DNA from: an uncultured Brevinematales bacterium
GTDB taxonomy: Bacteria; Spirochaetota; Brevinematia; Brevinematales; JAOACQ01
Length of the DNA stretch: 64,000 nt
NCBI GenBank assembly: GCA_964392785.1
Contig: CAYMRH010000005.1
Span: 4,778-68,777 of the forward strand
Direction of reading: 5' to 3'
Shown here: positions 2,211 to 64,000 of the stretch, piece after piece
Layout: the number at the start of each line of letters is the position of its first letter
Position numbering within the stretch: the stretch's first letter is position 1
Made by a program: the position numbers and the translations under genes
The notes under the pieces: model-generated
The model's database searches: none
What the model was told of the DNA's origin: nothing
Seen by the model: the letters and a program-made list of their open reading frames with translations, nothing else

Positions 2211-4073
2211 TCATATATTCGTTACTCCGTTGAACGCCGCGGTGGCGGCGCCGGAATAGGTCGTGTCGTTGATGGTGTTCCAGGCCGTCGCGCTGTTCGT
2301 CACAACATGGATGCCGTTAAAGTCGTAATAAAGCGGCCCCAGCCTGTTCGTCAGGAAAAGGTTGTAAGTCAAAATGTGGCCCGTCGTGTTCTCGTAAATA
2401 CTTTCGTTGAAACCGTATCCCGTATTGGCCGCGCCCGCGCCGCCGATGATATTCGAGGAAAAGACGGTGCCGTTCGCGTTTCTGAGACCGATGACGGACA
2501 GGTCGCCCAGAAAATAATTCTGAAGATTGGTCGCCGCGCATCCTTCGACCCACAACGCGCTTGCGTAACTGTTGCCGCCGTTCGACGCGATGACGTTGCT
2601 CTGGATCAATGCCCAGCCGTAAAGGAAGACGCCGGACGCGACGGAACCGGTGTTGTTGCCCGAGACGAGATTCTGGAGTATGCGGATCCCCCCGGTTTGG
2701 GAATAAATAGCCCCGCCGAACTCATCGGCGTAATTTGAGACGAAAACATTGGATTCCACGGTCGTGAAATTGGCGCCCGCGGGAGGACTGTTGGCCAACG
2801 CTCCGCCGTATTGGGCGGAATTGTTGGAAAAGAACGAGTTCATTACGCGGATGCCGTCGTTTTGAGTCGCGTAGATCCCGCCGCCGAAACTGGTCAAACC
2901 CGTGGAGATCGCGCGGTTATTGACGAAATGGCAGTGGAACGCCACTCCGTTCAAGGCCTCGAGATAAAGACCTCCTCCGAATGTATCGACAGACCCGTTC
3001 GAGACCCAGTTGCCAGCGAACACGGTGTTCGATACGGCGCAATACGCGCCCGACAGAACGGCGCCTCCGCCGGATAATCTGGAGGAATTATTGGAGATAA
3101 ATGAATCGATCAGAATGTTCCATTGGTCGGAGATCACGATACCCCCGCCGTAATTTCCCAACGTGCTGTTGGATACGATCACGCAATTTGTAAAGACGTT
3201 ATACGACCCCGCATTAAGGGCAATCCCGCCGCCCCCGTTGCCCATGCTGGAATTCATCGCGAACAGACCGGAGATCGTGTTGCTGGAGGCGTTTTCGATC
3301 CAGATTCCGCCGCCCATATTGATGACGACATGGCCCGTGATGATGACGCGGATGTCATTCTCGTTGGCCCCGGCTTCCAAGGCGATCCCGCCGCCGTAAC
3401 CGCAATTCTGATTGCCGGCCAGGGTGGCGTGGATCCGGTTGTTGCGCGAATGCATGAGCCCCATGCCCGCGCCGTACCACGACCGGTTGTTGGTCAGGAA
3501 GCAGTTGGTGACGAGGCAGGAGTGCGCGTTCGAGAGGAACAGGCCGCCCCCGAGGAGCATTCCGGCAGGATCCGGAGTTTGGGCGTAACCGCCCGTGAGG
3601 ACGAAATTCGCCAGCGTGACGTTGGTGGCGTTCCGCATTTCGACCACATGGTCGGGATCGCCGCCCCTTGACAGGATGCTGTAACGCCCGGCCTGGGGAT
3701 CGAAGGTGTTCGTGTCGCAACCGCCGTAAAGAGCCAGGTTGTGGTTGCTGATATAAACGCCGCTGTTCGTGGTGTCGTCGCCGTTTGTAAACGAAAGAAG
3801 ACCGAACCCGTTGGTGTAAAGCCCTTCTGCAACGTAAACATTCGCCAAGCCGTTGGACACGGCTTTCATGATCGCGATCTGGATGGTGAGCACCGGCGCG
3901 GTTTTGTCAGTCCCGGCGCTGGCGTCGCTACCGGCTGTGGAAACGTAAATGCCCGCGGGCCAGGAGGAGGGCGTTCCGCCCCCGCCGCCGCCCGTTGTTT
4001 CTCCGCCCGAGGGCGCCGAGGAACAGGACAGGAACAGGACGGTGAACGCCATGAGGAATATCATGTTTTTCAT
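2211..4073 (-). CDS. Lipoprotein with right-handed parallel beta-helix, copy 2 (paralogue of 325-2193)
   Basis: Lipobox FLSC; first ~100 aa nearly identical to copy 1; GGG(I/L) and F..N repeats. Confidence 0.82.
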   Translation of the reverse strand: MKNMIFLMAFTVLFLSCSSAPSGGETTGGGGGGTPSSWPAGIYVSTAGSDASAGTDKTAPVLTIQIAIMKAVSNGLANVYVAEGLYTNGFGLLSFTNGDDTTNSGVYISNHNLALYGGCDTNTFDPQAGRYSILSRGGDPDHVVEMRNATNVTLANFVLTGGYAQTPDPAGMLLGGGLFLSNAHSCLVTNCFLTNNRSWYGAGMGLMHSRNNRIHATLAGNQNCGYGGGIALEAGANENDIRVIITGHVVINMGGGIWIENASSNTISGLFAMNSSMGNGGGGIALNAGSYNVFTNCVIVSNSTLGNYGGGIVISDQWNILIDSFISNNSSRLSGGGAVLSGAYCAVSNTVFAGNWVSNGSVDTFGGGLYLEALNGVAFHCHFVNNRAISTGLTSFGGGIYATQNDGIRVMNSFFSNNSAQYGGALANSPPAGANFTTVESNVFVSNYADEFGGAIYSQTGGIRILQNLVSGNNTGSVASGVFLYGWALIQSNVIASNGGNSYASALWVEGCAATNLQNYFLGDLSVIGLRNANGTVFSSNIIGGAGAANTGYGFNESIYENTTGHILTYNLFLTNRLGPLYYDFNGIHVVTNSATAWNTINDTTYSGAATAAFNGVTNI

Positions 4074-4275
4074 GACGGGCCTCCATGTTATTCGGGATAT
4101 CCGGCCGTACGGCCGGGCCGGAACAGTTTACGCCCCGGTAGCGGCAATGTCAAGGCCGGTGCGCAACGGTCTGGGCCGGAAAAAATTCCGCTCCGGAACG
4201 CTCTTTGGCTTTGCGTTTCGGACGGACCGCGTTAAAATGGGAAAGGATCGTTTGAAGAAATGCAGGAGGATGATC

Positions 4276-4962
4276 ATGAATCAGGACTTGAAAAAATTCT
4301 TCGCGGAAATGATCGGGACCTTCGTGCTGGTCCTGGGCGGGTGCGGGAGCGCCATCTTCGCCGGCAAGTATATCGGGTTTGCCGGCGTGTCGGCGGCTTT
4401 CGGGCTTTCGCTGTTGGTTATGGCGTTCGCCATCGGGAATATTTCCGGCTGTCACGTGAACCCGGCGGTGAGTTTGGGCATGATGATCGCGAAAAAAATC
4501 TCCCCAAAAGAATTCGGATATTACGCGGCGGCTCAGGTGATCGGCGGGATCGCGGCCGGCGCTGTTCTGTACTGGATCGCTTCCGGCGCGCCCGGTTTCA
4601 ACGTTGCGAAAGGGTTCGCCGCCAACGGTTTTGGCGCCTATTCCCCGGCCAAATTCGGGATGGTTTCCGCGATCGTGGCGGAAGTGGTCCTGACCGCGCT
4701 GCTCATGTTCACGGTCATGGGGACAACGCATTCGCGTTTTCCGGCCGGGATGGCGGGAATCCCTGTCGGCCTGGTCCTGATGCTGATCCATCTGATATCC
4801 ATCCCGATCACCAATACCTCCGTGAACCCGGCCCGCAGCATAGGCGTGGCGGTATTCCAGGGCGGCTGGGCGATCCGGCAGTTATGGCTTTTCATTGCGG
4901 CTCCGCTGGCCGGCGCGGTTCTGGGCGTATTCGGATACAAACTGGTAGGCGAGAAAAAATAG
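4276..4962 (+). CDS. aqpZ: Aquaporin Z (MIP family)
   Basis: Two NPA motifs (HVNPAVS, SVNPARS), AE..GTF.LV; AGGAGG RBS at 4264-4269. Confidence 0.92.
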   Translation: MNQDLKKFFAEMIGTFVLVLGGCGSAIFAGKYIGFAGVSAAFGLSLLVMAFAIGNISGCHVNPAVSLGMMIAKKISPKEFGYYAAAQVIGGIAAGAVLYWIASGAPGFNVAKGFAANGFGAYSPAKFGMVSAIVAEVVLTALLMFTVMGTTHSRFPAGMAGIPVGLVLMLIHLISIPITNTSVNPARSIGVAVFQGGWAIRQLWLFIAAPLAGAVLGVFGYKLVGEKK

Positions 4963-4988
4963 GGCCATAATCTTTCGGATGTTTCACG

Positions 4989-5030
4989 ACACCGTGTCCC
5001 GGCCGGGAAAAAGCCGGGGCGCGGTGTTTT
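4989..5030 (+). terminator. Probable terminator after aqpZ
   Basis: ACACCGTGTCCCGGC...GCCGGGGCGCGGTGT hairpin followed by TTT. Confidence 0.55.
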
Positions 5031-5139
5031 GATAAAACATACATGAAAAGCTATTCAATTCACGGCGTCTCCACAATTCATTAGCATGTTATTTACAGAT
5101 CGGACTGAGATTATTTTTATATTTGCGCCAAAAAGCGTC

Positions 5140-5168
5140 TTGACAAACTGCAGGCTAAATTCTAAAAT
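5140..5168 (+). promoter_or_regulatory. Sigma70 promoter of the GH94 gene
   Basis: TTGACA-17 nt-TAAAAT. Confidence 0.8.
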
Positions 5169-5217
5169 ATTGCATCGTAAAGAATTAGTCGATTTATCCT
5201 TTTCGGAGGACTAAAAA

Positions 5218-7959
5218 ATGAAAAAAAAACCCCTAAAAGGGTTTGAATTTATAGGAAAAAACGGGGATTTTAAGCTTAAAAACCCTGAAAACAGCAGTTA
5301 TTTGTATTTCCCTTTGGCAAATGAAGCCGGTTTAATGAGTTCCATCACTCCCGCGCTGAACGGGGATGTCAAAACGGGTCAAAACTCGTTTCTGACTGAG
5401 CCGGTATCTTCAGAGAACCTTCATAACAACCGTTCGTCCCGTAATTTCTGGTTTTTTGTCCACGGCCGGAAGACCGCGTGGTCCGCGGCGGGGGAATCCG
5501 CCGCGCAGAAGGCCGCCCGCGTGCCGGGAGACGGAAAATCCGGAGAACAGGCCGTTGTGGAAGCGGGCATGCTCTGGCACGAGGTGACCCGGGAAAACAG
5601 GAAACTGGGCTTAAAGGCCCAGATCGAAAATTTTGTACCTGTATCTCAGGACACCGTTGAACTGATGCGCGTGACGGTCACCAACACCGGGCGCAAATCC
5701 GTGAAACTCACCCCCACCGCGGCGGTCCCCCTCTACGGCCGTTCCGCGGACAATATCCGCGACCACCGTCACGTGACGTCTTTACTGCACAGGGTCCGGA
5801 CAGTGAAAAACGGAGTGGCCGTCACTCCCACCATGTGTTTTGATGAACGCGGCCACACGGTGAACGGGATCACTTACGGGGTGTACGGCGCGGAAGGCGA
5901 CGGGACGCTCCCCGCGGGTTTCTTTCCGGTGACGGAGGACTTCATAGGCGAGGGCGGGTCATTCGACTGGCCGGAAAAAATTGTCGTGAACGCTCTGGAC
6001 GTGATGCCGTCCGGAAAACGGTTCGACGGGTTCGAGGCCATGGGCGCCATCCGGTTCCGGGACGTTGTTCTGCGGCCGGGCCAGAGCCGTTCGTACGTGC
6101 TGGCGCTGAGCGTGGAACAGCCCGGCCGCAAGGCCCCGCTGAAATACCTGGACGACCGCGCTTTTGAGAAGGCGCTTTCGGACAACAAAAAATTCTGGTC
6201 CGCCAAAACGGACAGCCTGACTTTTTCGGGGGCAGACCCCGACTTTGACAGCTGGCTGAAATGGGTGACCGTCCAGCCGGTCCTGCGCCGGATCTACGGC
6301 TGTTCGTTTTTGCCCCATCACGATTACGGCCGCGGCGGCCGCGGCTGGCGGGACCTCTGGCAGGATTGCCTGGCGCTCATTGTCATGGAACCCGAAGGCG
6401 TGCGCCAGATGCTTCTCAACAACTATGGCGGCGTGCGGCTGGACGGGTCCAACGCCACCATCATCGGTTCGGCCCCGGGGGAATTCATCGCGGACCGGAA
6501 CAATATTTCCCGCGTGTGGATGGACCACGGCGCCTGGCCGTTTCTGACCACCCGGCTTTATCTGGACTGGAGCGGGGACCTGAAGTTCCTTCTGGAACAG
6601 CAGTCCTATTTCAAGGACCGCCAGTTCGGGCGTTCCCGAACCCCGGACGAAAACTGGACGCCCGAGTACGGCAACCGCCAGAAAACCGCATTCGGCGGGA
6701 TCTATACCGGGACCGTCCTGGAACATATCCTGATCCAGAACCTGGCGCCTTTTTACCATGCGGGCGAACACGGCAACATTCTGCTGGAAGGCGCGGACTG
6801 GAACGACGCGCTGGACATGGCGCGCGACCGGGGCGAAAGCGTGGCATTCACCTGCTTTTACGCCTGGAACCTGGCGGAAATCGCGAAGCTGCTCCGCGAG
6901 GCGCACAGCCGCCTGGGCCTATCCGGGATCGAGGTGGCGCGGGAAATGGTGCCGCTGTTCGATACGCTGGACAGGAAGATCGATTACGCCAGCGTGAAGG
7001 AGAAACGCGGCCTGCTGTCCCGTTATTTTGAATCCTGCCTGCACCGGGTGTCCGGGGAAAAAGCGGAACTGAATATCCTCTCGGTCGCAAAGGACCTGGA
7101 GGGCAAAGCGGAATCCCTCATGGAACAGGTCCGCAAAAACGAATGGGTCACGGACGCGCGCGGCAACGGATGGTTCAACGGCTATTACGACAACTCCGGG
7201 GCGCGCGTGGAAGGCGTCCGGGATTCCGGAAAAGTCCGGATGACGCTGACCGGACAGGTGTTTGCCGTGATGGGCGGCGTGGCGACCGGAGACCAGGCGG
7301 AACGGATTGTCCGGTCCGTGAAAAAATACCTGAAAGATCCCGCCATCGGCGGTTACCGCCTGAATACGGACTTCGGGGAGATCAAGCCCGATTTCGGGCG
7401 CGCCTTCGCGTTCGCGTTCGGCCACAAGGAAAACGGCGCCGTGTTTTCCCACATGGCGGTGATGTACGCCAACGCCCTGTACCGGCGCGGATTGGTCCGC
7501 GACGGGTGGGACGTTTTAAAATCGCTATACGACCTGTCTTCGGACTTTCCCCGCGCCCGTATCTATCCCGGTCTGCCGGAATATTTCAACGAAAAGCGCC
7601 GCGGGATGTACCACTACCTGACCGGTTCGGCCAGCTGGCTGGCGCTGACGGTCCTGTCGGAAACGTACGGCGTGAGGGGAAAACTGGGGGACCTGGAGCT
7701 GGAGCCGAAACTGCTCCCGGACCAGTTTGACGCTCAGGGGCGGGCCGGTGTCCGGGCGCTTTTCGCCGGCCGGAGGCTGGAGATCGTCTATCATGCGTCC
7801 CGGAAAGCGGGTTCGCGGCGAAACCGGATTGGGGCCGTCCGCCTGGACGGAAAACCCGCCGGGGCGCGGATCGCGGGTCATTCCGCTCTGGTCAGGCGGT
7901 CCGTTCTGGAGCGTCTGGAGCCCGGCCGGTTGCACCGCCTGGATATAGAGCTCGAATAA
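5218..7959 (+). CDS. GH94 glycoside phosphorylase, laminaribiose phosphorylase type
   Basis: SYLYFPL.NEAG, YGRSAD.IRDHRHVTSLLHR, GRGGRGWRDLWQD, GADWNDALD, ENGAVFSHM, YHYLTGSASW; closely resembles the Paenibacillus laminaribiose phosphorylase as I recall it. Confidence 0.88.
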   Translation: MKKKPLKGFEFIGKNGDFKLKNPENSSYLYFPLANEAGLMSSITPALNGDVKTGQNSFLTEPVSSENLHNNRSSRNFWFFVHGRKTAWSAAGESAAQKAARVPGDGKSGEQAVVEAGMLWHEVTRENRKLGLKAQIENFVPVSQDTVELMRVTVTNTGRKSVKLTPTAAVPLYGRSADNIRDHRHVTSLLHRVRTVKNGVAVTPTMCFDERGHTVNGITYGVYGAEGDGTLPAGFFPVTEDFIGEGGSFDWPEKIVVNALDVMPSGKRFDGFEAMGAIRFRDVVLRPGQSRSYVLALSVEQPGRKAPLKYLDDRAFEKALSDNKKFWSAKTDSLTFSGADPDFDSWLKWVTVQPVLRRIYGCSFLPHHDYGRGGRGWRDLWQDCLALIVMEPEGVRQMLLNNYGGVRLDGSNATIIGSAPGEFIADRNNISRVWMDHGAWPFLTTRLYLDWSGDLKFLLEQQSYFKDRQFGRSRTPDENWTPEYGNRQKTAFGGIYTGTVLEHILIQNLAPFYHAGEHGNILLEGADWNDALDMARDRGESVAFTCFYAWNLAEIAKLLREAHSRLGLSGIEVAREMVPLFDTLDRKIDYASVKEKRGLLSRYFESCLHRVSGEKAELNILSVAKDLEGKAESLMEQVRKNEWVTDARGNGWFNGYYDNSGARVEGVRDSGKVRMTLTGQVFAVMGGVATGDQAERIVRSVKKYLKDPAIGGYRLNTDFGEIKPDFGRAFAFAFGHKENGAVFSHMAVMYANALYRRGLVRDGWDVLKSLYDLSSDFPRARIYPGLPEYFNEKRRGMYHYLTGSASWLALTVLSETYGVRGKLGDLELEPKLLPDQFDAQGRAGVRALFAGRRLEIVYHASRKAGSRRNRIGAVRLDGKPAGARIAGHSALVRRSVLERLEPGRLHRLDIELE

Positions 7960-57449: not shown

Positions 57450-60293
57450 TCAGTGCGCCCGGCTCCAGTTTGCCCCCGTGCCAATGTCCACCGTGAGGGG
57501 AATGTCCAGCTGATACGCGCTTTCCATGATATTTTTCAGGGCTGACCGAACCTTTTCCGCCTCGTTTTCGGGGCATTCCGCCACCAGTTCGTCGTGGATC
57601 TGGAGGATGAGCCGGGAGCGCATTTTTTCCCGGTCCAGCCAGTCCTGGAAACTGATCATGGCGATTTTTATGATGTCTGCCGCGCTGCCCTGGATGCGGG
57701 TGTTGAGCGCCATGCGCTGGGAGGCGGACATCTGGCCCGCGGCGGTTTCCTTGACCGGTTTGCCGTGCAGGTCCGGAAATTTTCTATAGCGGCCGGACAG
57801 GGTCCTGACCTCCCCGGTTTCGGACACGCCGCGAAGAACCTGTTCCACGAACCCGCGGACCTTCGGGAAACTTTTGAAATAGTTTTCAATGAAAATCCGC
57901 GCTTCCGTGACGGAAATGCCGATCTGCTTTGAAAGCCCGAACGCGGACTGGCCGTAGATAATGCCGAAATTGACCGTCTTGGCGCGCCGGCGCATTTCTT
58001 CCGTCACCTCTTTTTCCGGCACGTCGAACACGAGGGACGCGGTGTGGCGGTGGATGTCCAGGTTTTCAGTGAACGCCTTTTTCATGTTCGCATCGCCGCA
58101 GAAATGCGCCAGCACCCGCAGTTCGATCTGCGAATAGTCCGCGCTCACCAGCACGCATCCGGTGTCCGCCACGAACGCCTCGCGGATGCGGCGGCCGATC
58201 TCGTCCCGCACCGGAATGTTCTGGAGGTTGGGGTCGCTGGAGGACAGCCGCCCCGTGGCCGTGATGGTCTGGTTGAAACTCGTGTGCACGCGTCCGGTTT
58301 CGCCCCGGATCATTTCCGGGAGCGCGTCCATGTAAGTGCCCTTCAGCTTGGCGAGCGAACGGTAGGAGAGGATTTCCGCCGGCAGGGGGTGGACCGATGA
58401 GAGCGCCTGGAGCACTTCCTCGTCCGTGGAGTGCTTGCCGCCGTCGGTTTTTTTGACGCTCTCCAGCCCCAGTTCCTCGAAAAATATTTTTGAAAGCTGC
58501 TGGGGCGAATTGATGTTGAATTCCCGGCCGGCCAGGCGATAGATTTTGGCCTCCAAACCCTGGAGGGTCTTTTCTGTTTCGCCGGAAAGTTTGCCCAGGA
58601 AACCGGTGTCGATCTTCACGCCCGCGAGTTCCATTTTAGCCAGGACCGGCGCGAGCGGCTGTTCAATATTGTAGAGCACGTTTTCCAGCCCGTTCGGGGC
58701 GATGAGCGGCTCCAGTTTGTTTTTCAGCCGCAGGGCGGCGTCCGCGTCCGCGCAGGCGTATTGCGCGACGGCCTCAACCGGGACGTCCAGCAGCGTCATG
58801 TCTTTGGGTTTTTTGTCGCCCGCGTGTTCTTTCAGGATGTCGGTATAGGTGTTTTTGGCCGCGCCCAAATATTCCTGCACCAGGCTTTCCAGGTTGTTGT
58901 GCGTGCGGGTGGGGTTCAGAAGATAAGCCGCGAGCATGGTGTCAAAACCGATTCCGGAAAACGCGATCCCGATCTTCCCGAAAACCGCCGTGTCGAATTT
59001 CACGTTCTGGCCTGTTTTTTTTATGGATGGGTCTTCCAGCACGGGCTTCAGGGTTTTCAGCACTTCTTGGCACGAAAATTCCGTTTTCACGTCGTGCAGG
59101 AGGGGAATGTAAAACGCTTCGCCTTCCTTGAGACAGACGGAAATCCCGACAATGTCCGCCACAGCCGGGACGGTGGAAGTGGTTTCGGTATCGATGGAAA
59201 GAAATTTTTGTTTTTTGATTTCCGAAATAAGTTCTTCCAGTTCGGACCGCTTGGTCATGATGCGGTAATTGCCGGTGAAATCCCCGGCGGGTTTGGCCGG
59301 CGCGGGGGCTGTGTCCTCAAACAGGTTCTCGCGATGTGTTTTTACGGAGGCTTTTGCCGGAGCGGCCGATGTCGTGTCCCCGGAATCCGGCTTGCCGGAA
59401 GCAGGCTTCGCAGAGGCCAGCTTCTTCATGTCGTTGATGAGGGAAGTGAGCTGGTAATATTCCAGTTTATCCGTCACTTCCGGGTTGAGGAACAAAGACG
59501 GCTGGACCGGTTTTTCCACCTCGTCGTCGGGAATGTCCAGATCGCGGCGTATGACGGCGAGTTTTCTTGACAGATAGGCGTTGTCCCTGCTTTCGATGAG
59601 CTTTTTCTGGGCCGCGCCTTTTATGGCGTCGATGTGGGCGTAGATGTCGTCCAGGTCCCTGTACTGGCTTAACAGCGCCTGCGCGCCCTTGTCGCCTATG
59701 CCTTTCACGCCCGGGATGTTGTCGCTGGAGTCACCCGTAATGGCCAGGTAGTCTGCCACCTGTTCGGGCGTGACGCCCAGGGTTGCCTTCACCCCGTCCC
59801 GGTCCACGAGGTTGATCTCGGAAATCCCGTGCTGGGGACGGATGGCGAGAACGGTCCTGTCAACCAGTTGGAGCAGGTCCTTGTCTCCGGAGACAATGTA
59901 AACATCGTCGCTCTTTTTCCATTTTTCGGCCAGCGTGCCGATGATGTCGTCCGCTTCAAAATCCGGCATTTCGAGCACGGGGATGCCCATCTTGCGAACC
60001 AGGTCGATAACGATCGGGATCTGGGCTTTGAGATCCGGCGGGGTTTCCTGCCGCTGGGCCTTGTATTGTTCATAGATTTTTTTGCGGAAGGTGTCCCGGG
60101 ACAGGTCAAAAGCCGCCACCAGCACGTCGGGCTGGAAGTCGCGGATGATCTGGAGGAGGACTTTCAGAAAGCCGAAAATGGCGGAGGTGTTTTCCCCGCG
60201 CGTGGTGGTGAGGGGGCGGGATATGAAGGCGTAATACCCCCGAAAAATGAGGCCGGAACCGTCCAGAAGGAGGATTTTTCTGCGGGTCGGCAA
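57450..60293 (-). CDS. polA: DNA polymerase I
   Basis: 5'-3' exonuclease (LLDGS....R.Y, EADD.IG, GDSSDNIPGV), 3'-5' exonuclease (IDTETT), polymerase motifs (DYSQIELR, RR.AK..NFG..YG, QIHDEL); TTG start with AGGAG RBS. Confidence 0.97.
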   Translation of the reverse strand: MPTRRKILLLDGSGLIFRGYYAFISRPLTTTRGENTSAIFGFLKVLLQIIRDFQPDVLVAAFDLSRDTFRKKIYEQYKAQRQETPPDLKAQIPIVIDLVRKMGIPVLEMPDFEADDIIGTLAEKWKKSDDVYIVSGDKDLLQLVDRTVLAIRPQHGISEINLVDRDGVKATLGVTPEQVADYLAITGDSSDNIPGVKGIGDKGAQALLSQYRDLDDIYAHIDAIKGAAQKKLIESRDNAYLSRKLAVIRRDLDIPDDEVEKPVQPSLFLNPEVTDKLEYYQLTSLINDMKKLASAKPASGKPDSGDTTSAAPAKASVKTHRENLFEDTAPAPAKPAGDFTGNYRIMTKRSELEELISEIKKQKFLSIDTETTSTVPAVADIVGISVCLKEGEAFYIPLLHDVKTEFSCQEVLKTLKPVLEDPSIKKTGQNVKFDTAVFGKIGIAFSGIGFDTMLAAYLLNPTRTHNNLESLVQEYLGAAKNTYTDILKEHAGDKKPKDMTLLDVPVEAVAQYACADADAALRLKNKLEPLIAPNGLENVLYNIEQPLAPVLAKMELAGVKIDTGFLGKLSGETEKTLQGLEAKIYRLAGREFNINSPQQLSKIFFEELGLESVKKTDGGKHSTDEEVLQALSSVHPLPAEILSYRSLAKLKGTYMDALPEMIRGETGRVHTSFNQTITATGRLSSSDPNLQNIPVRDEIGRRIREAFVADTGCVLVSADYSQIELRVLAHFCGDANMKKAFTENLDIHRHTASLVFDVPEKEVTEEMRRRAKTVNFGIIYGQSAFGLSKQIGISVTEARIFIENYFKSFPKVRGFVEQVLRGVSETGEVRTLSGRYRKFPDLHGKPVKETAAGQMSASQRMALNTRIQGSAADIIKIAMISFQDWLDREKMRSRLILQIHDELVAECPENEAEKVRSALKNIMESAYQLDIPLTVDIGTGANWSRAH

Positions 60294-60445
60294 TGGGGCG
60301 CTCCTGAATGTTGTTGGTTTCATGTTAGCATGGAACGGGGGTTTTGGCGAGAGTATGCCAACCACTAAGCCACACAGGCACAGAGAACACAAAGGTTTAA
60401 TATGAATGAGGAAGGTATTGCGGTGGGCGGCAGGAGCCCCAGTCC

Positions 60446-60660
60446 CTATCCCCCGACCCTCGCTTTCAGTTCGCTCGCGTTCAGGCCGGCGGTGTCATAC
60501 AGGTTCTTGTAGCGGGCGTAGTAGGAGAGGATCTTCTTCAGGTAGTCGCGGGTTTCGGCGTAGGGGATGATCTCCAGGAGTTCCAGTTCGTTGGGAGGGG
60601 AGAAGCGGCGGTCCGTTTTGCGGATAATGCCTATGCCGCCGTTGTAGGACGCGAAGACAC
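60446..60660 (-). pseudogene. 3' fragment of a soluble lytic transglycosylase
   Basis: ASYNGG...IPYAETRDY.KKIL SLT C-terminal motifs; no catalytic N-terminal half or start upstream. Confidence 0.75.
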
Positions 60661-60684
60661 AAAGAGTTGGGAAGTGGATTGGTA

Positions 60685-60747
60685 AGAGTCGCAGAGGGCC
60701 CTCGGCCCGGCTCAGGCTCACTCTCGGGGCAGGCGCCGAGAACGCGG
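60685..60747. repeat. REP-like unit nested in a CGCAGAG-periodic repeat
   Basis: AGAGTCGCAGAG-[GGCCCTCGGCCCGGCTCAGGCTCACTCTCGGGGCAG]-GCGCCGAGAACGCGG. Confidence 0.6.
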
Positions 60748-60786
60748 AAATATTTTGGGTGGGAAGTAAGCGAAAAGGAGGTTTTC

Positions 60787-61782
60787 GTGCATATCGACAT
60801 GCTGGGCAAGAGCCTGGAAGAATTTTTACGGGACTTGACTGCACAGGGGGTTTCGGACCGTACGGTCAGGATCATGCGTTCCAGCGTCGGTCAGTTTATC
60901 GGATTCTTACGGAAGCGGGGCTTATCAGAAGCGTCCGGAATAACGCGGCAGGATCTTTCGGAATTCAGTTTCGGACTTTTGTCCCGTCAGGCGCGGAGGG
61001 GAAAATCCGTGGTTGCGGTTCCGTTCAGCGCCGCCAGCCGATGCAGCGTGCTTTGCGCCGTTAAGAGGTTTTTCCGGTTCCTGAAGATGACGGGTACGAT
61101 AGGAGAAAATCCGGCGTTGGACCTGCCCTTGCCGCGTATCAACAAAAAGATACCGCGAGAGACATTAACGCCGCAGGACGTGGAACAGATCGCGGATGCG
61201 GCAGACCGGAACCGGAAAATCGGTTTGAGAGACCGGGCCATCATCCTGACTCTTTATGCGACGGGGATCCGGTCGCCCGAACTGGCCCGTCTGAAAATTG
61301 ACGACATCGATTTTACCGGCCGATTTGTGACCGTCAGAACGGGGAAAAACGGGCGTTCCCGGACCGTGCCGATTTCCAGAACGGCGCTGGATGCTCTCGG
61401 GACATACCTGCGGCGGGCCCGACCACGCTTTTTAAAGAAAAGCGAGGCCGACGCCGGATTTGTCTTTCTGTCCATACGGAACACCGCGACAACCGGGACG
61501 CCGCTCGGAATAACGGCCATACTGGGACTGGTCCGTACGGTGGCGAAGAAAGCCGGCTTCCGGAAACGGATCGTGCCCCACAGTTTCCGCTACGCCTGCG
61601 CCACGCACATGATGCGAAACGGTGCGGACATCCGGTTTGTCCAGGAAATGCTGGGGCACAAGAGCCTGATGGCCACGCAGGGATACACGGAGGTCGTTAA
61701 AGGGGATTTGAAACGCGCGATCGCCCGTTATCACCCGCGAAACGACCGTCCGGCGGAGGGAAGGAGCGCCGTCCATGACTGA
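60787..61782 (+). CDS. Tyrosine recombinase (XerC/D-like) 1
   Basis: AAAGGAGG RBS and GTG; YATGIR, GK, PHSFR, LGH, TQGY catalytic set complete. Confidence 0.92.
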   Translation: MHIDMLGKSLEEFLRDLTAQGVSDRTVRIMRSSVGQFIGFLRKRGLSEASGITRQDLSEFSFGLLSRQARRGKSVVAVPFSAASRCSVLCAVKRFFRFLKMTGTIGENPALDLPLPRINKKIPRETLTPQDVEQIADAADRNRKIGLRDRAIILTLYATGIRSPELARLKIDDIDFTGRFVTVRTGKNGRSRTVPISRTALDALGTYLRRARPRFLKKSEADAGFVFLSIRNTATTGTPLGITAILGLVRTVAKKAGFRKRIVPHSFRYACATHMMRNGADIRFVQEMLGHKSLMATQGYTEVVKGDLKRAIARYHPRNDRPAEGRSAVHD

Positions 61783-62794
61783 AGGTTTTGAAACCATGCT
61801 GTCCGTTTATCTGCGCAACATGCGGGAGCGAAACCTGAGGGAAGCGACACGGGAAAAAGCCCGACAGGACCTGGCCAGGCTGTTTCCGTATCTTGAACAC
61901 ACTCTGGGGTTACAGGACCTCCGCTCGGTGAACGGCGGGCACCTGACGGCGTTCCGGGAACATCTTGCGAACGCGTTTCAGCGGCGCGTATTCCGAAACG
62001 GCATCCGCAGGCGGCTCAGCCGGAGGACGCAGACCGTCACTCTGGCCGAGACGAAGAGATTTTTCCGTTTTTTGGCCGGGCAGGGGCTTCTGGCCGCCAA
62101 TCCGGCGGAGGACCTGGAGATCCGCCGCGACCGGAACAGGATCCCGAGGAAAATCCTGACCGAATCGGAAGCCGGGAGGATCCTGAACAGGGCGGCATCG
62201 CGAAGCGTAAGGACCAGACACGGGATACTCCACCGGGCCATCCTAGAGCTTTTGTACGGAAGCGGGATCCGGAGTTCGGAACTGCGATTTTTGAAAATTT
62301 CCGACGCGGACCTGGAAAACGGACTGCTGTTTGTCAACGGAAAGGGGGGACGGGACCGTGTCGTGCCGATGACCACGCCTGCCCTCGTGGTCCTGAAGGA
62401 CTATTTATCCGGAGAGCGGAGGGAAATGGCTTCGCGAAAACCGGCGGAGGATAGGTTGTTTCTCATGGAAAACGGGAGGCCGTTGAAAAAATGGTATCTG
62501 GGCCGGATGATCGCCAAATACGCCAGAGCCGCCGGGATCTCCGATCCGGTTTCGCCGCATTCCTTCCGCCACGCCTGCGCGACGCACCTGCTGGCCCGCG
62601 GCGCCGCTCTGAGATACGTCCAGGAACTTCTGGGGCACGCCTGGATCTGCACCACGGAAATTTATACACACGTGTTTTCGAACACGTTGAAGGCGGTTTA
62701 TGAGAAAACCCATCCTCATTGCGTCAGCCGGAAGAAGCCGAGATCCGGCCGTCCGGGCGACGATCGACGACGGAAAACGGATGCGCAAAAATAA
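61775..62794 (+). CDS. Tyrosine recombinase (XerC/D-like) 2
   Basis: YGSGIR, GKGG.DR.VP, PHSFRH..ATH, LGH, TTEIY; 8 nt overlap with recombinase 1. Confidence 0.93.
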   Translation: MTEGFETMLSVYLRNMRERNLREATREKARQDLARLFPYLEHTLGLQDLRSVNGGHLTAFREHLANAFQRRVFRNGIRRRLSRRTQTVTLAETKRFFRFLAGQGLLAANPAEDLEIRRDRNRIPRKILTESEAGRILNRAASRSVRTRHGILHRAILELLYGSGIRSSELRFLKISDADLENGLLFVNGKGGRDRVVPMTTPALVVLKDYLSGERREMASRKPAEDRLFLMENGRPLKKWYLGRMIAKYARAAGISDPVSPHSFRHACATHLLARGAALRYVQELLGHAWICTTEIYTHVFSNTLKAVYEKTHPHCVSRKKPRSGRPGDDRRRKTDAQK

Positions 62795-62949
62795 CAATCA
62801 GTCCGTTTTACAAACGGTCCAACATCAGTTTAAAATGATGGCGGTCAACGGTCATAGGACTTGTGTGAAAAAGCCGGGATTTTCATCGCGTTTTCGCTGA
62901 AAGGCAACTCTCGGCATGGCCTGCAGTTAACCGGCCTGTAATTCAGGAC

Positions 62950-64000
62950 TGGTGGACCGGACATTATCGGGACCAGGAATCCAACCTCTATTACGCGAGA
63001 GCACGATACTACAACCCCGAAACCGGACGGTTCATTACCAGCGATCCCATAGCCGACCCGGAGAAGCGGTACTCACCCGCCGGACTCAACAGGTATATTT
63101 ACGGGTTGAACAACCCCACAGTATATTGGGACCCGAATGGGTTGTTCAGCATAGGATTCGGGCTTGTTCTCAGTTGGGACCCGGACCACGGATTTGGGAT
63201 AGGCGTCGGGATAGCGTTCAGTCTTTCCAAAGAATTCGGCGTGGAACTGTACGGCGGATATAATTTCGGCGACCAGTCTTACTCATTTAACGCCGGCGTC
63301 AACGTTAATTTGAATCTGTTTAATTATGTCAGTGTCAAGGTAGGATTGGGTTACGGGTATAATTCCGAGGACGGGCATAAATTCAACGCGTCCCTCGGGG
63401 CCAGCATCGTTAATTTCGGGGCTGAGATTGGAACGGAACAGACATGGTATGCGGACGGGTCGTACCGCGGGGGTTTGTCATACGCCAAGGCGTTCATAGG
63501 AAGCACCCAAATGCATGTGGGAGGTGGTTACCAGATCGGAACCGGGGTGTACTCGGGAGATACCGGATGGTTCATGGAAGGGAAAGTAGGCGGGCTTTCG
63601 GCCAAATTCCAGGAAAACGGGAAAATGACGTTTGGGGCGTTCGGGGTGAACGCTCAGGTTTACCAGGGTCAGTTCGCTCTGACGGGATTCAGGACCGAAG
63701 TGGGATACCGGTACGACTCCGGGAGCGGGCAAGGCGGCCTTTATTCCTCGACATGGAACAGCGTCATGGAGACTTATGAAACCCTGGTTTCCGCTTACAA
63801 ATACCTGACCAGAGATGCCGTGGCGAAGAAAATGACTGAAGAGCGGGTCAGGCCGAAATTGAGGAAGGATTACGAACAGGAAGCGTGGCGTAAAACCCTT
63901 GCGGAAGCGTATTACAGAGACTATATGACGGCCATGTGGCAGAGTCATACCGAACAGGAACGTCAAACTTACATGGCCGACAGGAGATTGCAGAAGGAAT
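62950..64000 (+). CDS. Orphan Rhs repeat-associated core plus C-terminal (toxin) extension; no start codon, runs off the window
   Basis: Frame +1, hand-translated: WTGHYRDQESNLYYARARYYNPETGRFITSDP...NRYIYGLNNPTVYWDPNG; no stop up to 64000; upstream in-frame TGA at 62866 with no ATG, GTG or TTG before the core. Confidence 0.88.

Follow-up and report, generated by a model that had tools for sequence, protein, structure and literature searches.

The DNA analysed here is a 64,000-nucleotide (nt) stretch from an uncultured Brevinematales bacterium, referred to throughout as the window. Its last part, from position 60787 to the end, carries two overlapping tyrosine recombinase genes (rec1 and rec2) that are followed on the same strand by a start-less end of an Rhs toxin gene. 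Comparison with related loci makes it probable that a small plasmid-like integrative element has its right-hand end here, one of a widespread family with the attachment (att) site in the end of the Rhs core. The following features lie at the locus:

60446 to about 60658, minus strand: remnant of slt (soluble lytic transglycosylase), the last ~56–70 residues only.
60659–60786, plus strand: leader of rec1, 128 nt, with two TGGGAAGT motifs and AGGAGG, by direct reading of the sequence.
60787–61782, plus strand: rec1, A-type tyrosine recombinase, GTG start, 331 amino acids (aa), intact, PF00589 match at E 7e-41.
61775–62794, plus strand: rec2, B-type tyrosine recombinase, ATG start, 339 aa, intact, PF00589 match at E 2e-39.
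62795–62952, plus strand: P arm (element-side arm), the 158 nt from rec2 to the Rhs junction, with a sigma-70-like site, an in-frame stop and a AACCGGCCTGTAATT block.
62953–63144, plus strand: start-less Rhs core-end fragment, TGHYRDQESNLYYARARYYNPETGRF...NNPTVYWDPNGL, TIGR03696 (Rhs_assc_core) match at E 1.4e-17.
63106–63108, plus strand: TTG, the start of protein P0001 in the public gene call, with no Shine–Dalgarno sequence upstream and 8 codons before the cleavage motif.
63145–64000 and a further 783 nt beyond the window, plus strand: toxin tip, made up of a Gly-rich module, a helical linker and a toxin domain.

The two recombinases are here called A-type (rec1) and B-type (rec2), and recA and recB denote the same two gene types in related elements. 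The genes overlap by 8 nt, their products are 32% identical, and a Shine–Dalgarno sequence (AGGAGG, 60776–60781) stands 5 nt before the GTG of rec1. The first-pass annotation, made from the letters of the window alone, had described two overlapping XerC/D-like genes with full R-K-H-R-H-Y sets, and both halves of this description hold. The catalytic set of tyrosine recombinases (R, K, H-x-x-R, H, Y) can be read as GIR, GK, HSFR, LGH and GYT in rec1 and as GIR, GK, HSFR, LGH and IYT in rec2, and alignments A1 and A2 show no variation in these columns. The best family-level matches of both proteins are XerC, XerD and XerA models (198–232 bits), with scores under the NCBIfam equivalog cut-offs for XerD (218 and 232 bits for rec1 and rec2, cut-off 329.6) and for XerC (198 and 227 bits, cut-off 335). 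The integron-integrase model TIGR02249 (cut-off 265) gives 100 and 106 bits, the GmtY model (cut-off 340) gives 25 and 16 bits, and invertase models score far under the three Xer models. In sequence, rec1 is 38–47% identical to the first recombinases of four related loci (L026, L027, L033 and L117) and ~30% identical to their second ones. The nearest homologues of rec2 (P0013 at 51% identity, P0014 at 44% and P0015 at 39%) are each the second gene in an overlapping pair. Within the clade of the window, the A and B types are conserved as separate types.

Upstream of rec1, the TGGGAAGT copies lie at 60668–60675 and 60760–60767, in a leader that is the counterpart of the spacer between the primase gene and recA in complete elements. 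That spacer holds reiterated (C/G/T)TGGG(T/A)A motifs, some of them inverted (L026 1–400, L027 700–900, L033 150–380), and motifs of this TGGG type could be iterons, operators or arm-type recombinase sites. No tRNA gene or Rfam match was found within the 64-kb window, no attC-like inverted repeat was found in 60200–64000, and no dif-like site was identified near the recombinase pair.

The match to the Rhs core begins 158 nt past the rec2 stop and covers positions 19–76 of the 76 positions of TIGR03696, that is, its last 58 positions; the fragment reads TGHYRDQESNLYYARARYYNPETGRFITSDP...NNPTVYWDPNGL. Its frame opens behind an in-frame stop (62866–62868), and no in-frame ATG, GTG or TTG lies between this stop and the TTG at 63106, which, to judge from its sequence context, is probably not a real start. 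The abrupt, start-less opening at the conserved terminal block that the first-pass annotation had placed about 155 nt after the recombinases is thus confirmed, as are the passage of the frame through a DPxG autocleavage motif (DPNGL, 63130–63144) and its openness to the window end. Together with NNPTVYWDPNGL, this motif conforms to the PxxxxDPxGL pattern of Rhs C-terminal parts. Protein P0001 of the public gene call has 558 aa, lies on a 70,785-bp contig and extends 260 codons past the window end, and the whole tip frame, 636 codons long, is intact. The frame was indeed absent from the list of open reading frames (ORFs) that accompanied the sequence, because ORFs running off the window end are unlisted. 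No YD repeats occur elsewhere in the window, and the shell, N-terminal delivery domain and start of a complete Rhs gene were not found in it; without a YD shell and a usable start, the Rhs piece is an orphan fragment. Profile A6, which represents the tip together with related sequences, hits TccC3, YenC2, Tse5 and Rhs structures of the PDB at their core ends. Homology to P0002, a full-length Rhs fragment, begins at the TGHY motif, and the Rhs pieces of L026 and L090 have the same 5′ edge as that of the window. This edge (about 62953–62985) is a candidate crossover site. Within the P arm, a sigma-70-like site at 62807–62836 (a consensus match only) could be the origin of transcripts that run towards the tip and the immunity gene expected there, and AACCGGCCTGTAATT (62930–62944) resembles AGCCGGGCTATAAAT of L026 and L027, which counts as weak evidence.

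Directly after DPNGL, the tip opens with a Gly-rich module (63148–63615, aa 15–170 of P0001) that is modelled as antiparallel hairpins. In the AlphaFold model of P0001, the predicted local distance difference test score is 80–94 over aa 15–160 and above 85 over aa 290–558. Foldseek gives weak matches of the module to invasin, intimin and OprD barrels (E about 7e-3), and the predicted sheet is transmembrane-beta-barrel-like. Many Rhs tips whose toxin domains differ contain the same module, full-length Rhs proteins such as P0254 (3475 aa) among them. As a side observation, it may be a membrane-insertion or translocation module. The toxin domain proper (aa ~305–558) is encoded past the window end, after the helical linker, and no Pfam, NCBIfam or PDB sequence match was found for it. 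Its relatives have the motif L.H......WN.S.GC......DY in common, which we take to recall the His/Cys motif of YkuD-type L,D-transpeptidases. In related loci, the position of the immunity gene after the tip is occupied by Ank, TPR or small ORFs.

The neighbourhood of the window recurs elsewhere. Metagenome and genome collections were scanned with an alignment of the rec2 clade, and about 150 Xer-like loci were scored with local hidden Markov models of the recombinase and of a 71-position Rhs core end. An adjacency was counted when a same-strand Rhs core end lay at most 1.5 kb downstream, and only loci with at least 400 nt of downstream sequence were included. The first-pass annotation had looked to enrichment of such pairs beside Rhs cores, and the enrichment is strong: a downstream Rhs core end was found at 15 of the 25 tandem pairs (none at 10) and at 2 of the 125 single recombinases (none at 123; Fisher's exact p = 2e-12). 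Four of the 10 negative pairs are short contigs of L027/L033 elements that end before the core, and the two positive singles are L063 and L096, the partner of the latter falling where it would be off the contig. Neither an Rhs core end nor a tandem pair was present at any of 80 control loci (1.29 Mb), which are host dnaG matches from the genome scan with the primase profile. The survey loci are partly dependent, L029–L036 being one element and L117 and L118 coming from one genome; about 16 distinct element types show the recombinase–Rhs junction. The adjacency recurs over recombinases that are 30–50% identical, in Spirochaetota, Acidobacteriota and unclassified metagenome contigs. Enrichment at pairs and absence from the controls thus indicate that the adjacency is not due to chance.

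In every locus, all Rhs fragments lie on the recombinase strand, and the pairs of rec2's closest homologues are followed by an N-terminally truncated Rhs part on that strand. The Rhs piece of L026 begins at a TGHY/TEHY block, as in the window, that of L027 begins ~110 codons earlier and has a TPR protein next to it, and that of L033 retains ~330 codons of YD repeats. The window shares the defining layout of these Rhs-tip elements, namely an overlapping A/B pair with a same-strand, start-less Rhs core end ~70–850 nt further on.

Complete relatives reveal what normally lies to the left of the pair. In 19 of 27 neighbourhoods, the backbone runs in the order opposite-strand XRE repressor, small ORF, primase–replicase, recA and recB, and it often also has ParA and a toxin–antitoxin pair. 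The primase–replicase (520–1450 aa; PF01807, PF08275, Toprim, PF27228) contains a zinc ribbon, DNAG_N, Toprim and PF27228, a domain named for an archaeal plasmid protein, and the profile of the backbone primase has 463 relatives. The elements are 6–10 kb long and replicon-like, and giant Rhs genes harbour them within their last ~70 codons. There, the Rhs shell is joined in frame to the element's own tip and immunity gene, and a start-less older tip follows recB. The idea of the first-pass annotation that the recombinases mobilise toxin tips finds support here, since in relatives the pair stands at the very joint at which an old tip has given way to a new one.

The clearest case is a group of closely comparable loci. 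The left part of L197, L201 and L202 is a giant Rhs gene (3200–3300 aa) with a phospholipase-like tip and an ankyrin immunity protein; the middle holds RHH/ParE, XRE, two 91-aa ORFs, ParA, the primase, a 52-aa ORF, recA and recB; and the right part is a Tox-REase-7 tip that lacks a start and is accompanied by a 200-aa partner of its own. L197-type elements are present in JGI 3300066683 and related samples. In L198–L200, the shell and the phospholipase tip form a single 3257-aa ORF, and the phospholipase tip appears again, start-less, after recB, where it heads a second copy of the element in tandem. Both ends of the element bear an Rhs core end in L102 and L090, and L206 consists of two chained elements with different tips. 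In L294 (an IMG/VR contig, 1348–2700), two consecutive start-less tips follow the recombinase, each opening with the 23-nt junction GGTGTGGCTGACTACCTATACCG. Repeated junction sites and serial tips, for which the first-pass annotation had pointed to downstream DNA, are therefore present in relatives (L294, L077, L198–L200 and L206). L206 also holds, at 3897–7702, an Omp85/POTRA protein and a TIR-domain protein, apparently as cargo, between its Rhs tip–immunity pair and its backbone.

The joint between element and Rhs gene can be mapped in several relatives. In L197/L198, exactly 38 nt, GATGGCCAAAACTGGTATGCTTATGTGGGGAATAATCC, are common to attL, attR and the tandem (attP-like) junction. This core codes for DGQNWYAYVGNNP, just upstream of DPxGL, and its flanks are unrelated, being Rhs or P arm on the left and the phospholipase or the Tox-REase-7 tip on the right. 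L077 contains two junctions with a 100% identical P arm and GGGTACAGATTTTAT (GYRFY) that part right after GYRFY (SPELGRW versus DPLLGRW), which limits the joint to at most 20 nt, at the ARYYDP motif. In L102, identity extends over a block of at least 44 nt up to ...EETG and drops to 75% after it, and in L090 a block of at least 126 nt (100%) starts at PGQYYD, the position of the window's TGHY. Five elements of another clade all open with L*(N/Y)LIGARYYDP and have conserved ATAGNAYCTAATYGG and TCTTTGAAA blocks in the P arm before the Rhs piece. Wherever a joint was mapped, recB lies ~70–300 nt from it, and the position of the joint within the ~70-codon core end differs by clade. Short joints, unrelated flanks and a nearby recB read as hallmarks of integrase-mediated recombination. 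At attR of L197 (15011–15040), the displaced Tox-REase-7 tip is one nt out of frame with the shared core, so that no read-through would occur even if translation entered that core. L090 and L077 were also considered as circular contigs, and this was ruled out, as their terminal repeats are offset or diverge past the joint.

These relatives suggest the following course of events. A complete element would consist of the opposite-strand XRE repressor, often ParA and a toxin–antitoxin pair, the primase–replicase and the two overlapping tyrosine recombinases, with an attachment site within the conserved last ~70 codons of Rhs genes. In its circular form, the element would bear its own start-less core end, toxin tip and immunity module right after recB. 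A short common core, O, would be the site of a recombination that fuses this module in frame to the resident Rhs shell, and the resident tip would end up start-less directly after recB, giving the layout recB–P arm–O–old tip. The window would match this layout with its two recombinase genes, the P arm, O (at TGHY) and a tip that is intact, and its left half is gone. Direct observation covers the sequence features, the conserved synteny, the enrichment and, in relatives, the in-frame fusion and the mapped joints; we infer that the recombinases catalyse the joint, that an episomal stage exists, in which order the events took place and how the window copy came about. With slightly less assurance, we also think that the tandem recombinases of a self-replicating mini-element would serve the site-specific, in-frame replacement of Rhs tips and thus make the element a delivery vehicle for toxin–immunity pairs. 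Serial use would build arrays of orphans and leave recombinase-plus-orphan remnants like that of the window, the tip of which could perhaps be mobilised again.

Several observations weigh against this reading. No circular form and no empty site was observed among the loci examined. The identity blocks of L102 and L090 are long enough to permit RecA-dependent recombination too. The 5′ edges of the Rhs pieces vary by clade, falling at profile positions ~3–9, 17, 21–25 or 47, or 100–330 codons upstream. L117 and L118 have no Rhs gene upstream, and L203 and L204 (ENA ERZ25039480) have the XRE–ParA–primase–recA–recB backbone without any Rhs fragment, which means that the backbone family is broader than Rhs targeting. 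In the window itself, there is no Rhs shell upstream and neither a primase nor a repressor (tblastn with 36 backbone protein queries gave no match), and the slt remnant stands at the left edge, so the canonical integrated form is not present there.

The neighbours of L203 and L204 are reverse transcriptases, PIN, YoeB and MqsA-type toxin–antitoxin genes and unknown proteins, and this backbone may serve other cargo or other polymorphic-toxin scaffolds. L117 and L118, which lie in a metagenome-assembled genome of Spirochaetota (CAWIGG010000004.1), are 98–100% identical copies of one element in head-to-head arrangement; the 1.7 kb between them contains no Rhs shell, and different tips lie downstream. 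A second inverted repeat, of 2.1 kb, lies in their tip region, and the arrangement may be either a real palindromic rearrangement or an assembly artefact.

The replicon features of the family (ParA, the primase–replicase and toxin–antitoxin pairs) would equally suit integration driven by homology. In such a process, the Rhs piece would be a homology arm for RecA-dependent Campbell integration of a small replicon, and the tandem recombinases would be only Xer-like multimer resolvases or excisionases of the episome. The identity blocks of at least 126 nt at 100% (L090) and at least 44 nt (L102) fit this process, as do the clade-dependent 5′ edges of the Rhs arm and the ~500 nt of Rhs that L117 and L118, with their 98%-identical backbones, share before diverging. 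The joints of 38 nt (L197) and at most 20 nt (L077) do not, having unrelated flanks and being at or under the length for efficient RecA recombination. The distance of ~70–300 nt between recB and the joint, which is like that of integrase genes beside attP, and the conservation of P-arm blocks within clades also argue against it, and we regard it as unlikely. A second alternative would make the system integron-like, the recombinases excising and inserting backbone-free cassettes of O, tip and immunity gene, so that silent tips in an array could be moved onto an expressed Rhs gene. Directly repeated O sites would allow the intervening DNA to be excised, and serial tips with a repeated O do occur in L077, L198–L200 and L206. 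The two consecutive start-less tips of L294, with their identical GGTGTGGCTGACTACCTATACCG junctions, would be accounted for equally well by serial integration and later loss of the backbone. A complete backbone separates consecutive tips in most loci, there are no attC-like structured repeats, the integron-integrase models reach 100–106 bits against the cut-off of 265, and no array is visible within the window; we hold an integron-like system to be very unlikely.

A third alternative assigns no function to the arrangement and sees a generic island integrase pair that happens to lie beside a decaying Rhs pseudogene. The window has neither an Rhs shell nor a primase, its neighbouring gene is truncated, and the sole start codon available to the Rhs frame is the unlikely TTG. 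Against this stand the recurrence of the adjacency across 30–50%-identical recombinases in Spirochaetota, Acidobacteriota and unclassified metagenome contigs and its absence from the controls, and both recombinases and the 636-codon tip frame of the window are intact. The survey disfavours chance adjacency, and we consider it highly improbable.

If the segment is indeed the end of an Rhs-targeting integrative element, the window copy has been altered at its left side. The element sequence ends 128 nt before rec1. The slt remnant matches residues ~510–575 of the Slt70-type enzymes 6fpn, 5o1j and 1sly (phmmer against the PDB, E about 8e-4), the match begins at a codon near 60658, and no SLT catalytic motif was found anywhere else in the window. 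Because only the 3′ end of slt is present, the recombinase-plus-tip segment would begin ~128 nt before rec1, at a rearrangement break in slt. To the left of the remnant lie polA, an Hsp70/DnaJ pair and ordinary chromosomal genes. With its left half missing, the copy can be taken as a truncated or relocated remnant with intact recombinases and an intact tip ORF, and this intactness suggests that the truncation is recent or that the remnant is maintained. Its junction may be of the attP type (with the element's own tip) or of the attR type (with a displaced resident tip), as both fit. The nearest relatives of polA are ~50% identical and offer no usable synteny for an empty-site comparison. The only inverted match, of 18/20, between 60278–60297 (the first codons of polA) and 63046–63065 (in the Rhs fragment), CCCATAGCCGACCCGGAGAA, was considered as a pair of recombination sites and rejected, since its BLAST E value over the window is 1.1 and it is probably due to chance. 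Elsewhere in the window, the region 18–22 kb has a strong negative AT skew (−0.33) and an 884-aa minus-strand ORF with a DUF6115 match, and at 22–24 kb the GC content dips to 0.46 over a 336-aa ORF that has no Pfam match.

If the proposed explanation is true, this replicon-like family that targets the Rhs core would provide the vehicle and the enzyme that tip acquisition has been missing, would explain why orphans start at fixed positions of the core, and would make the exchange of toxin tips directly testable. The elements occur in Spirochaetota, Acidobacteriota, Planctomycetia and many unclassified metagenome contigs, and given this broad spread they may be a general route of turnover of interbacterial weapons. 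What appears to be new in the proposed reading is an integrative element that targets the conserved end of a polymorphic-toxin gene and swaps the toxin as it integrates. A literature search found no description of an element with a primase, tandem recombinases and an att site in the Rhs core; the coverage of the search was incomplete, and this is not proof of novelty.

The closest published idea is the displacement model for Rhs C-termini, which invokes homologous recombination and hypothetical episomal circles and in which no integrase is known beside Rhs (Jackson et al. 2009, PMC2935791). Orphan rhs C-terminal/immunity modules have also been described for bee-gut symbionts (PMC5727410). As in the present family, the displaced start-less tip of that model keeps a piece of the core and lies downstream of the expressed gene with its immunity gene, and new tips displace old ones. 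Displacement by that route relies on homologous recombination, whereas here a recombinase pair and a replicon-like backbone stand exactly at the joint. A second relative is the recombinase-associated acquired interbacterial defence (rAID) of Bacteroidales (summarised in PMC12247911), and polyimmunity loci that adjoin XerC/D-like genes have been reported as well (Zhang et al. 2012, PMC3482391). These loci resemble the present family in having a tyrosine recombinase beside co-oriented orphan polymorphic-toxin genes and conserved intergenic motifs, and rAID differs in having one recombinase and arrays of short immunity genes and in having neither a primase backbone nor an in-frame Rhs-core joint. 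The family described here has a tandem pair and a large toxin tip instead. A rAID locus has a single recombinase followed by at least two short, co-oriented, low-GC orphan immunity genes; the window has two recombinases, the first ORF after them is a tip that exceeds 630 codons, and any later genes lie past the window end.

Integrase genes have been noticed near toxin loci before. The Aux3 module of Vibrio cholerae is reportedly a mobile T6SS (type VI secretion system) module (Santoriello et al. 2020, cited in PMC8285248). Integrase-like genes associated with Rhs in Snodgrassella and Gilliamella were noted without analysis (Steele et al. 2017, PMC5727410). Both cases concern integrases near Rhs or T6SS effector loci that were suggested to aid the transfer of toxin genes, and these reports describe neither a joint within the Rhs core nor a tandem pair or a primase backbone.

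Among site-specific recombination systems, XerC/XerD show the best family-level similarity and likewise comprise two paralogous subunits with complete catalytic residues. The pair differs from them in its scores (198–232 bits against cut-offs of 330–335), in the overlapping tandem genes on a mobile backbone and in the absence of an identified dif-like site. The locus is not a recombinase-in-trio or a gamma-mobile-trio (GmtY/Z/X), as it has two recombinases only and the GmtY score is low. The first-pass annotation had likened it to an integron or a shufflon, and both analogies are only partly borne out. Like those systems, the family places a tyrosine recombinase beside promoter-less modules that would be expressed once joined to a fixed expression site, and serial tips with repeated junctions exist in relatives. 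The integron analogy fails in that there is no attC and no IntI-specific signature, the IntI scores being low, and in that the mobile unit is replicon-like, 6–10 kb long and usually has its own replication genes; the shufflon analogy fails in that all modules are co-oriented, with no inversions.

A further parallel is with integrative elements that target the 3′ ends of tRNA and tmRNA genes. These elements have attP beside the integrase gene and carry a replacement 3′ end, so that integration restores an intact gene and leaves the displaced partial copy at the other end. The proposed Rhs element shares with them both the position of attP beside the integrase and the carried 3′ part of the target. 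It differs in targeting a protein-coding gene, that of a toxin, and in regenerating a 3′ end that encodes a different toxin. Thus, integration of the Rhs element would change the function of its target gene, whereas integration into a tRNA or tmRNA gene preserves it.

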